In this document: piece after piece, positions 51,910 through 55,881 of the stretch | How the letters are laid out: each line of letters begins with the position of its first letter | How positions within the stretch are numbered: the first letter of the stretch is position 1 | IMG/VR virus record: IMGVR_UViG_3300008262_000055 | Length of the DNA stretch: 64,000 nucleotides | Source of the DNA: a virus | Lineage: Duplodnaviria > Caudoviricetes | Direction: 5' to 3' (one strand) | The notes under the pieces: model-generated | The model's input: the letters and a program-made list of their open reading frames with translations, nothing else | Databases searched by the model: none | Told to the model about the DNA's origin: nothing | Program-made: the position numbers and the translations under genes

Positions 51910-51983
51910 TGGTGCTCTCAAGAGGTAACGCTCCTCTGTTTCTACATTACCAATGTAGTGTAATGCTTTTATACTATAAGAGC
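51910..51983 (-). tRNA. tRNA-Thr(GGT)
   Basis: Loop TT-GGT-AA; atypical T-loop AGCGTTA; CCA. Confidence 0.85.
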
Positions 51984-52068: not shown

Positions 52069-52290
52069 TTTGTAAGCCTACGCCGCTTTTATCGTAGATT
52101 TATTCAGGACTTACCGGCCGCCTAGCCTGACCTCGAGCACGATGGATATCACTTGGGTTTCCACCAGCGTAGTCTCCGTTACAGACCCCTGCAGTTCCCC
52201 GCAGGGTGGGAGTTGAACCCATTTGCCTTTTGCGTCTAAGTACCTTCGAAGAATACTTTGAACGTGTTTCCACTTGCTGACACTTACAAA
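52069..52290 (-). ncRNA. Candidate Y-RNA/YrlA-like permuted tRNA mimic
   Basis: Terminal stem TTTGTAAG/CTTACAAA; inside, in order, T-arm TGGG-TTCAACT-CCCA, GGAA-capped 8-bp acceptor-like stem, D-arm-like GTCT-GTAACGG-AGAC. Confidence 0.6.
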
Positions 52291-52368: not shown

Positions 52369-52369
52369 A

Positions 52370-52449
52370 TATAGAAACACACTCAAGTCCGCGGCTCGGA
52401 AGGCACTATACCCGCGATGGCTTATAGCCAGGCCTAGTGTGCTTTTATA
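52370..52449 (-). ncRNA. Candidate three-way-junction RNA in a tRNA spacer
   Basis: 14-nt closing stem (one mismatch, one G-U) enclosing TGGCT/AGCCA and CGCGG/CCGCG helices. Confidence 0.5.
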
Positions 52450-52524
52450 TGGTAGGGGCACCGGGACTCGAACCCGGATAGATCGGTTAAAAGCCGACTA
52501 TTCTAGCCTTTGAATTATACCCCC
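52450..52524 (-). tRNA. tRNA-Lys(TTT)
   Basis: Loop CT-TTT-AA, CCA. Confidence 0.95.
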
Positions 52525-52527
52525 GTA

Positions 52528-52602
52528 TGGTCCACGCTCTGAGAATCGAACTCAGTTCCTCCGGTTAAGAGCCGGTTACTTCGCCACTAAAGTTTAGCGT
52601 GG
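52528..52602 (-). tRNA. tRNA-Lys(CTT)
   Basis: Loop CT-CTT-AA, CCA. Confidence 0.92.
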
Positions 52603-52664
52603 TTGGTCGTAATTAAATTTGATTTAATGTGCCAACCAAGACCATTACGGGGTCAAAGTTGACA

Positions 52665-52688
52665 CTAACGTTTACCTGAACGTTTCAT
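52665..52688 (-). CDS. Micro-ORF MKRSGKR (putative leader peptide)
   Basis: AGGAG 6 nt before ATG AAA CGT TCA GGT AAA CGT TAG; followed by a hairpin and the tRNA-Lys pair. Confidence 0.5.
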   Translation of the reverse strand: MKRSGKR

Positions 52689-52784
52689 GTCATTCTCCTA
52701 TTTTAAATTATGATCAATAAAAATTATTAAAACTATAACCATGAGTAAAACTGCGACCGCCCCATTTTGTTTTCTCCTTATAAT

Positions 52785-52858
52785 TGGTTCCCAGAACAAG
52801 AATCGAACTTGTAATGACCGGTTATCAGCCGATTGTTATACCATTTAACTATCCGGGA
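52785..52858 (-). tRNA. tRNA-Ile(GAT)
   Basis: Loop CT-GAT-AA, CCA. Confidence 0.93.
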
Positions 52859-52869
52859 ATAAAACTGTC

Positions 52870-52877
52870 TATAAATA
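52870..52877 (+). promoter_or_regulatory. T4-type late promoter
   Basis: TATAAATA 5 nt before the ATG at 52883. Confidence 0.65.
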
Positions 52878-52882
52878 TCCGT

Positions 52883-53566
52883 ATGTTTAATACTGAAGCT
52901 CACATTAACGAACAATATAAAAATCAAACATTACTGTGGCATAGAGGCGACAGTGAAGAAAAGTTTGGATATAATAAATTAGACAAACGAATACAGTGGT
53001 GTCTAACTGAACATATCAATTATAAATTTAATTCTTATGGTTTTAGATCTGATGAATTTACTAATATTGATAACCTTGTATCATTAGGTTGTAGTTTTAC
53101 TTTAGGAACTGGTATTCCTTACGAATCTACATGGTCCTATATTATTAGTAAAAAATTAAATCTAGCAAATTTTAATTTAGCCATAGACAGTACTAGTGCC
53201 GACTGTTGTTTTAGAATGGCATACAATTGGATATCGCAATTAAAACCTAAGATTGTACTTTATCAAAGTCCTGATCCGTCAAGACTTGAATGGTTCGATG
53301 GTGAAAGTCGTAAACCTCACAATATGTCAGCTTCTTCTCATAACCATTCAAATTTTTATAAAGAATGGATTGTTGATGAAAAAAACCTAAAATTTAATCA
53401 TTTAAAAAATTTACACGCTATACAACACCTAGCCGAATCAGCGGGTGCTAAATTTGTCCATTTGTCTTTATCTAATATAGCTAGATTAGACTATGCTAGA
53501 GATGCAGGACATTACGGTCCTAACACCAATCGAGCTGTAGCTGAAAATATTTTACGCTCACTTTAA
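52883..53566 (+). CDS. SGNH-hydrolase-like protein, antisense within the tRNA array
   Basis: YKFNSYGFRS...LGCSFTLG...NLAI...HYG; start moved to MFNTEA. Confidence 0.75.
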   Translation: MFNTEAHINEQYKNQTLLWHRGDSEEKFGYNKLDKRIQWCLTEHINYKFNSYGFRSDEFTNIDNLVSLGCSFTLGTGIPYESTWSYIISKKLNLANFNLAIDSTSADCCFRMAYNWISQLKPKIVLYQSPDPSRLEWFDGESRKPHNMSASSHNHSNFYKEWIVDEKNLKFNHLKNLHAIQHLAESAGAKFVHLSLSNIARLDYARDAGHYGPNTNRAVAENILRSL

Positions 53567-55675: not shown

Positions 55676-55711
55676 TAAACAAAAACCCCAGGGTTTTTAA
55701 TCCTGGGGTCC
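55676..55711 (-). terminator. Intrinsic terminator of the putative attenuator
   Basis: ACCCCAGG-9 nt-CCTGGGGT followed by TTTTGTTTATT. Confidence 0.85.
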
Positions 55712-55737
55712 TTTTGAAGTTTGAGTTTACTTTTTTG

Positions 55738-55881
55738 TTAACTCATGATCTCCATGGACCCCGGGTGTAGCTCTGGTGTGCGATCATATGATAGACTATT
55801 AATCGCAAACCAAGCAGAGGGCATTACGCCTCCTAACTGGGCTATCGATTTACATTGTCTATGTAATGATGTCGTTTTCAT
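55738..55881 (-). CDS. Putative attenuator leader peptide, 47 aa, containing all 20 amino acids
   Basis: Not in ORF track; MKTTSLHRQCKSIAQLGGVMPSAWFAINSLSYDRTPELHPGSMEIMS; 37 different codons; 3' end complementary to the terminator 5' arm. Confidence 0.75.
   Translation of the reverse strand: MKTTSLHRQCKSIAQLGGVMPSAWFAINSLSYDRTPELHPGSMEIMS

Follow-up and report, generated by a model that had tools for sequence, protein, structure and literature searches.

A lysine-codon micro-ORF and mutually exclusive helices before the tandem tRNA-Lys genes of freshwater phages: a probable ribosome-gated switch of tRNA maturation

The window analyzed here is a stretch of 64,000 nucleotides from a virus of the Caudoviricetes (IMGVR_UViG_3300008262_000055). 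It belongs to a large freshwater phage and carries an array of 31 tRNA genes on the minus strand, along with genes for omega, ClpP, and IF-1. The DNA runs containing the window sequence are lake or freshwater samples. All parts of the element described below, the Lys switch, lie at about 52699-52521 on the minus strand, and the coordinates of its parts refer to that strand. It ends in two tandem genes, tRNA-Lys(CUU) (52528-52602) and tRNA-Lys(UUU) (52450-52524). The array is headed by a 47-codon leader with codons for all 20 amino acids (55738-55881, minus strand), followed by a terminator-like hairpin near 55676-55712, which would form an upper tier of control. Between tRNA-Ile and the Lys switch lies a second micro-ORF of ten codons led by a Shine-Dalgarno sequence (52733-52765, minus strand), possibly a gene remnant; in contig L009, a similar micro-ORF start is followed by a consensus sigma-70 promoter. 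A 260-aa ORF without a Pfam match (52784-53566, plus strand) is inserted antisense in the array, and its true start is probably located after the listed TTG. Downstream, tRNA-Lys(UUU) is followed by a hairpin spacer (52369-52449, minus strand) with an ACACA/TGTGT-type closing stem, found in many relatives with varying interiors. At 52070-52276, the depth of RNA-library contigs from relatives is far above that of the neighboring bins in four of four runs (up to ~28,000 summed depth), which hints at an abundant spacer RNA, contig depth being a poor measure. A tRNA with anticodon GGU (Thr; 51913-51983, minus strand) has mismatched arms and was found by Rfam but not by ARAGORN.

The Lys switch is present in at least 210 distinct copies on freshwater phage contigs, each followed by a tRNA-Lys; this lower bound comes from scans that included viral contigs and metagenomes. 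The viral-contig scan used hairpin A (see below) alone as query, was blind to the ORF and gave at least 120 matches; among the matches listed, 97 distinct copies with upstream sequence were scored. The metagenome scan fixed neither frame nor loop and gave 103 distinct matches followed by a tRNA, which was tRNA-Lys in all 103 cases. Two tRNA genes lie 3' of the switch in 200 of the 210 copies and one in the other 10. A covariance-model search of 52603-52700 against the structured RNA families of Rfam, such as the T-box, the lysine riboswitch, and leader RNAs, returned no match at the gathering score or at E-values up to 10, and in the cultured phages searched, matches were confined to the tRNA body and the switch element was absent. 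GTDB genomes contain four real copies, on MAG contigs that are probably binned phage (L268, L271, L272, and L276); the other seven GTDB matches were chance hits, six of them out of frame. Among the RNA-library contigs of relatives, X16 bridges the leader and tRNA-Lys(CUU) and X17 covers tRNA-Lys(UUU); these contigs define neither ends nor strand, possibly derive from DNA, and are not taken as evidence for the switch. Conservation is higher for the ORF (83%) and the switch (76%) than for the body of tRNA-Lys(CUU) (64%), and the contexts upstream of the switch vary between copies. A promoter-like site lies directly upstream in about one quarter of the copies, while no sigma-70 promoter adjoining the ORF was found on the minus strand of the window. 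An upstream ORF terminates near the ATG in about half of the copies.

The switch begins with the Shine-Dalgarno sequence AGGAG (52695-52699), followed by a micro-ORF encoding MKRSGKR from the ATG at 52688 to the TAG at 52665. Both had been pointed out in a preceding sequence-only reading of this DNA and are present as described. Each of the 116 copies scored has an SD-like word 5' of the ATG. In the window ORF, codons 2 and 6 are AAA and codons 3 and 7 are CGT, and the family follows the pattern M-K-x(1-4)-K-x-TAG with a length of 6-9 codons. Among the matches listed from the ORF-blind scan, the frame from ATG to TAG is intact in 97 of 97 copies, codon 2 is Lys in all of them (94 AAA, 3 AAG), and codon -2 before TAG is invariably AAA and never AAG. 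The ORF is thus conserved with both Lys codons, a check that the sequence-only reading had named for its proposal. Length changes occur in triplets only, with 103 of 103 copies in frame in the metagenome scan, where the frame was left free.

The same reading had proposed a joint Lys/Arg sensor. Because both Lys codons are invariant whereas Arg varies, only the lysine half of that proposal stands. Arg3 is found in 92 and a final Arg codon in 70 of the 97 copies listed from the ORF-blind scan, and variants such as MKASAKQ, MKHAKP, and MKLGKP are devoid of Arg, as are some peptides from the metagenome scan. The last codon often follows pairing with the middle of the ORF, and no micro-ORF recurs upstream of Arg tRNAs. 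A recurring micro-ORF is found before Lys tRNAs only (186 matches over 201 tRNA-Lys(CUU) genes), none recurring in front of the other tRNA types in these loci. Lys micro-ORFs are rare before unrelated viral Lys tRNAs (2/128 vs. 2/693). The AAA codon is read by tRNA-Lys(UUU) only. On this codon pattern, the codon read by the putative sensor is lysine, specifically AAA, and the ORF is presumably translated.

The stop codon overlaps hairpin A (52629-52665; segments 2:3), the proposed ON state, whose first base is the G of TAG. Its outer stem pairs 52665-52657 with 52637-52629 and its inner stem pairs 52654-52651 with 52643-52640 around a loop of 7 nt; the folding energy is -18.6 kcal/mol (z -3.1 to -3.6). 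The nine outer pairs are formed in 93-100% of the copies, including an A-U/U-A swap. Helix B1 (52600-52638; segments 3:4), the proposed OFF state, pairs 52638-52632 with 52606-52600, that is, leader positions -4 to -1 and nucleotides 1-3 of tRNA-Lys(CUU), and encloses the AU stem C (52628-52622 : 52618-52612). Hairpin A and B1 compete for 52637-52632. Both folds, with the shared bases and the AU stem, were already part of the sequence-only reading, and compensatory changes across the copies now bear them out. Over 200 copies, B1 pairs at -4 in 86%, at -3 to -1 in 98-99%, and at -3 to +1 in 98-100%. An A/T swap in segment 3 is matched at tRNA position -1 in 197 of 200 copies, and the swap extends to segment 2, which makes the covariation three-way. 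On a tree of short tRNA bodies, this A/T covariation is seen in 13/13 and 12/13 independent pairs, counts that overstate the independent events because of the relatedness of the copies and because recombination may move the module as a block. tRNA-Lys(CUU) starts with CC, as B1 requires, in 197 of 200 family copies vs. 4 of 92 unrelated viral tRNA-Lys(CUU) genes, and the switch may explain this start, which is odd for this tRNA. In every copy, segment 4 continues into the body of the tRNA. No terminator-like site or U-tract was found on the minus strand, in agreement with what had been remarked before. In six contigs (L093, L102, L307, L340, L349, and L366), stem C is duplicated, adding ~32 nt between segment 3 and the tRNA, with B1 and B2 kept. 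The ACCA at 52606 could be taken for the end of a tRNA-like remnant, a reading that was discarded: about half of the copies have CCAT instead, and these bases take part in B1.

A further helix, B2, was not among the features of the sequence-only reading. It is formed by a guide strand (52639-52652) comprising the inner stem and loop of hairpin A, which is antisense to the junction of the two Lys tRNAs (52521-52533), namely the last 6 nt of tRNA-Lys(CUU) including CCA, a 3-nt spacer, and the first 4 nt of tRNA-Lys(UUU). The pairing 52652-52639 : 52533-52521 has 12.4 expected pairs in the window and amounts to ~12-18 bp in all 66 distinct guide/target pairs of a first set. For 131 distinct pairs, the energy with the own target is -26.4 kcal/mol vs. 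-22.0 kcal/mol for permuted targets, a value reached in 0 of 10000 permutations. The covariation includes matched insertions and deletions as well as matched changes in the acceptor stem of tRNA-Lys(UUU), and G-U pairs and bulges at the junction differ between copies. In ten variants without an intact tRNA-Lys(CUU), the guide pairs across the 5' end of tRNA-Lys(UUU) in all ten. A stall on AAA that released only tRNA-Lys(CUU), no reader of AAA, would be a puzzle, which is solved by B2 reaching tRNA-Lys(UUU). On these pairing data, B2 rather than B1 is the main putative masking helix, and tRNA-Lys(UUU), not tRNA-Lys(CUU), is indispensable as its target. In contig L025 (near 3190-3160, minus strand), all that seems to be left of tRNA-Lys(CUU) is an acceptor-stem minihelix, located between B1 and the tRNA-Lys(UUU) junction, which suggests that the role of tRNA-Lys(CUU) is partly structural.

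Helix H0 (52660-52692; segments 1:2), which had also been missed, pairs the start region 52692-52687 with 52665-52660 in the 5' strand of hairpin A and includes an inner hairpin of an ORF palindrome. It emerged from minimum free energy folding and comparison of the copies, with 5-6 contiguous pairs in 162 of 209 copies vs. 35 of 675 control gene starts, and is predicted to hide the AUG when the ribosome is absent. A candidate pseudoknot of the ON state would pair 52608-52613 with the loop of hairpin A (52649-52644). It has 4-7 bp in 107 of 108 distinct pairs, yet own pairs average 4.58 bp vs. 4.40 bp for cross pairs (2 of 10000 permutations), so the effect is small and the pseudoknot tentative.

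Forty copies were folded with a ribosome footprint, using transcripts that end at tRNA nucleotide +10. Hairpin A forms in 90% of the copies when Lys2 is in the A site and in 98% when the Lys codon at -2 is, but in 0% one codon later or at the stop. Ribosome-free short transcripts form it in 45% of the copies, and in the window they fold as H0 plus B1. When the second AAA occupies the A site, the first base of hairpin A is P-site +12, at the edge of the mRNA channel of the ribosome, which measures 11 nt (PMC7282821). The switching contrast is sharp for footprint edges from +11 to +13, and with the ribosome stalled on Lys, both acceptor stems cost 3.6-6.8 kcal/mol less. At full-length equilibrium (ViennaRNA), however, the masked state is preferred in every ribosome state, under a stall by +2.8 kcal/mol in the window and by a mean of +5.7 to +6.7 kcal/mol. 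The ON state therefore needs co-transcriptional trapping, tertiary folding of the tRNAs, or the tentative pseudoknot, and this computed preference for the masked fold is the main gap in the model.

Judged by comparison of the copies, selection acts on the ORF, on its two Lys codons, on the AAA-NNN-TAG spacing to hairpin A, and on the exclusive helices H0, A, B1, and B2. We interpret the element as a ribosome-gated tRNA-maturation switch, with a probability of about 0.7; its output is most likely tRNA maturation. When no ribosome is present (H0 formed), or when the ribosome reads through to the last codon or the stop (hairpin A melted), B1 and then B2 would form. On pre-tRNA-Lys(CUU) they would occupy the leader, the 5' end, and CCA, and on pre-tRNA-Lys(UUU) the 5' strand of the acceptor stem, blocking RNase P and 3' trimming, and the masked precursor would be held or degraded. 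A paired leader is known to block RNase P in vivo and in vitro in a synthetic switch (PMC7897497). When charged, intact tRNA-Lys(UUU) is scarce, the ribosome would wait on AAA and cover segment 1, leaving segment 2 just outside the mRNA channel. Hairpin A would then form, both cloverleaves would fold, and both tRNAs would be processed. The result would be a lysine-specific feedback loop within an array whose transcription is gated separately, and each precursor would possibly be re-tested by repeated initiation. The A/B switch on the Lys tRNAs put forward in the sequence-only reading is therefore retained in outline, supported by ORF conservation, triplet-only lengths, three-way covariation, and ribosome-state folding, and revised in its main helix and its target.

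Scarcity of tRNA-Lys(UUU) may arise from lysine shortage, from the phage's own heavy AAA demand (826 AAA vs. 262 AAG codons), or from host anticodon nucleases such as AriB, which would destroy it. The earlier reading had named tRNA-Lys as a target of PARIS; AriB of PARIS indeed cuts Lys(UUU), and it also cuts Thr(UGU) and Asn(GUU) (PMC12409363). Among copies of the family tRNA-Lys(UUU), 0 of 97 carry the E. coli AriB site, but among control viral tRNA-Lys(UUU) genes only 2 of 35 do. Since the site is commonly absent from viral tRNA-Lys(UUU), its absence is not diagnostic, and avoidance of the site as a family-specific trait was rejected. A link of the switch to anticodon-nuclease defenses is plausible on the codon identity.

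The main rival to tRNA maturation by masking keeps the same Lys sensor but treats the OFF duplex as a destruction signal that is cut by an RNase III-like enzyme or exposed to decay. We regard it as unlikely. The 12-18 bp of B2 could stack with B1, and B2 spans both tRNA ends, so that one cut would destroy both tRNAs. A typical RNase III substrate, however, comprises two helical turns, and B2 alone is shorter than that. The variable G-U pairs and bulges at the junction also count against this reading, and masking suffices alone in the synthetic case (PMC7897497). If the helices were instead a ribosome-independent aid for folding or processing, for example for ordered release or storage of the tandem Lys tRNAs, the ORF would be a constitutive opener or encode a basic peptide. 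The peptide is indeed basic, the masked state dominates at equilibrium in all ribosome states, and the upstream ORF ending near the ATG in about half of the copies would permit translational coupling. We nevertheless consider this improbable: only the two Lys codons are fixed while other residues and lengths vary, the AAA at -2 is never replaced by AAG, its distance to hairpin A equals the channel length of the ribosome, and read-through favors the OFF state rather than opening.

A Lys sensor that acts on transcription of the array, by pausing or by Rho- or phage-factor-dependent termination, as at 55.7 kb, would fit the classical 1:2/2:3/3:4 layout and the promoter-like site upstream of about one quarter of the copies. 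It is less probable still, as the strand lacks a U-tract or terminator and B2 forms ~140 nt downstream and is built from tRNA ends. The tRNAs further downstream are unrelated to Lys and vary between phages (Met, Gln, Thr, Arg, His, and Phe in the window), so that Lys-specific termination would silence the wrong set. That the element is a chance or relic sequence kept by descent is hardly credible. The phages that carry the copies are indeed all freshwater phages of a single related group, but the element is more conserved than the adjoining tRNA, its upstream contexts are varied, and the compensatory changes and the conserved frame already contradict such a relic.

If the ribosome-gated maturation switch is correct, folding and processing of tRNAs would be a third output of ribosome-stalling control, after termination and RBS masking, and phage tRNAs would be released singly and conditionally rather than supplied constitutively. 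The question why phages carry tRNAs, for codon supply or as replacements for cut host tRNAs, would become testable via what flips the switch. A compact, codon-programmable tRNA switch could also be of use in synthetic biology.

The leader-peptide attenuators trpL, hisL, pheL, and thrL combine a short ORF containing cognate codons with alternative helices. The Lys switch resembles them in its invariant cognate codons (97 of 97 copies among the matches listed), in its four segments pairing as 1:2, 2:3, and 3:4, and in computed folds that exclude each other according to ribosome position, with a stall giving the ON fold and read-through or lack of translation the OFF fold. It differs in that segment 4 is a pre-tRNA end and no 3:4 terminator with a U-tract was found on the minus strand. 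Moreover, an additional antisense helix covers the next tRNA, the ORF has just 6-9 codons, and the switch would regulate the same tRNA that it senses to be scarce. In ermC/ermCL and cat, stalling of a ribosome on a micro-ORF rearranges the helices further downstream, and no termination is involved, as proposed here. The Lys switch, however, masks no RBS of a protein gene, tRNA genes being located downstream, and its signal would be codon (tRNA) supply instead of a drug or nascent peptide. In the dnaX frameshift, a hairpin 11-12 nt from P-site +1, with a Lys codon in the A site, slows A-site tRNA binding (PMC7282821). Codon and spacing are the same here, without a slippery heptamer or an extended frame, and by analogy hairpin A may sharpen the pause as the dnaX stem-loop does. 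As far as the available text of two papers on phage T5 and PARIS/AriB goes (PMC11464382, PMC12409363), T5 likewise has a tRNA-Lys(UUU) without the E. coli AriB site, which serves it as a counter-defense against PARIS/AriB, and that text describes no control of T5 tRNA maturation.

We found no natural precedent for a leader-peptide switch that targets the ends of tRNAs in a literature search that left subscription journals largely uncovered. An unrelated 619-kb phage contig (L194:8493-8660, plus strand) encodes a ten-codon Lys leader ending in K-x-TAG, the G of which starts a hairpin with the same spacing as in the window; a competing helix covers the tRNA-Lys(CUU) leader. No relatives of this analogue were found in a search, and an apparent one (L267) was a chance match. 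This single, differently built example suggests that such a switch arose more than once. In the literature found, control of tRNA maturation by masking exists solely as an engineered device and is apparently undescribed in nature. In that device, the synthetic RNase P riboswitch (Ender et al., 2021; PMC7897497), the 5' leader of a pre-tRNA is either left single-stranded or covered by a sequestor helix, much as B1 pairs leader positions -1 to -4, and this controls maturation. The engineered switch depends on a theophylline aptamer and acts on the leader only, whereas the Lys switch is natural, is proposed to be driven by the ribosome, and reaches beyond the leader into two tRNAs, at their acceptor stems and CCA. 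On balance, we lean toward viewing it as a natural class of ribosome-operated riboswitch that uses tRNA maturation as its platform and would unmask the Lys tRNAs when AAA decoding fails.
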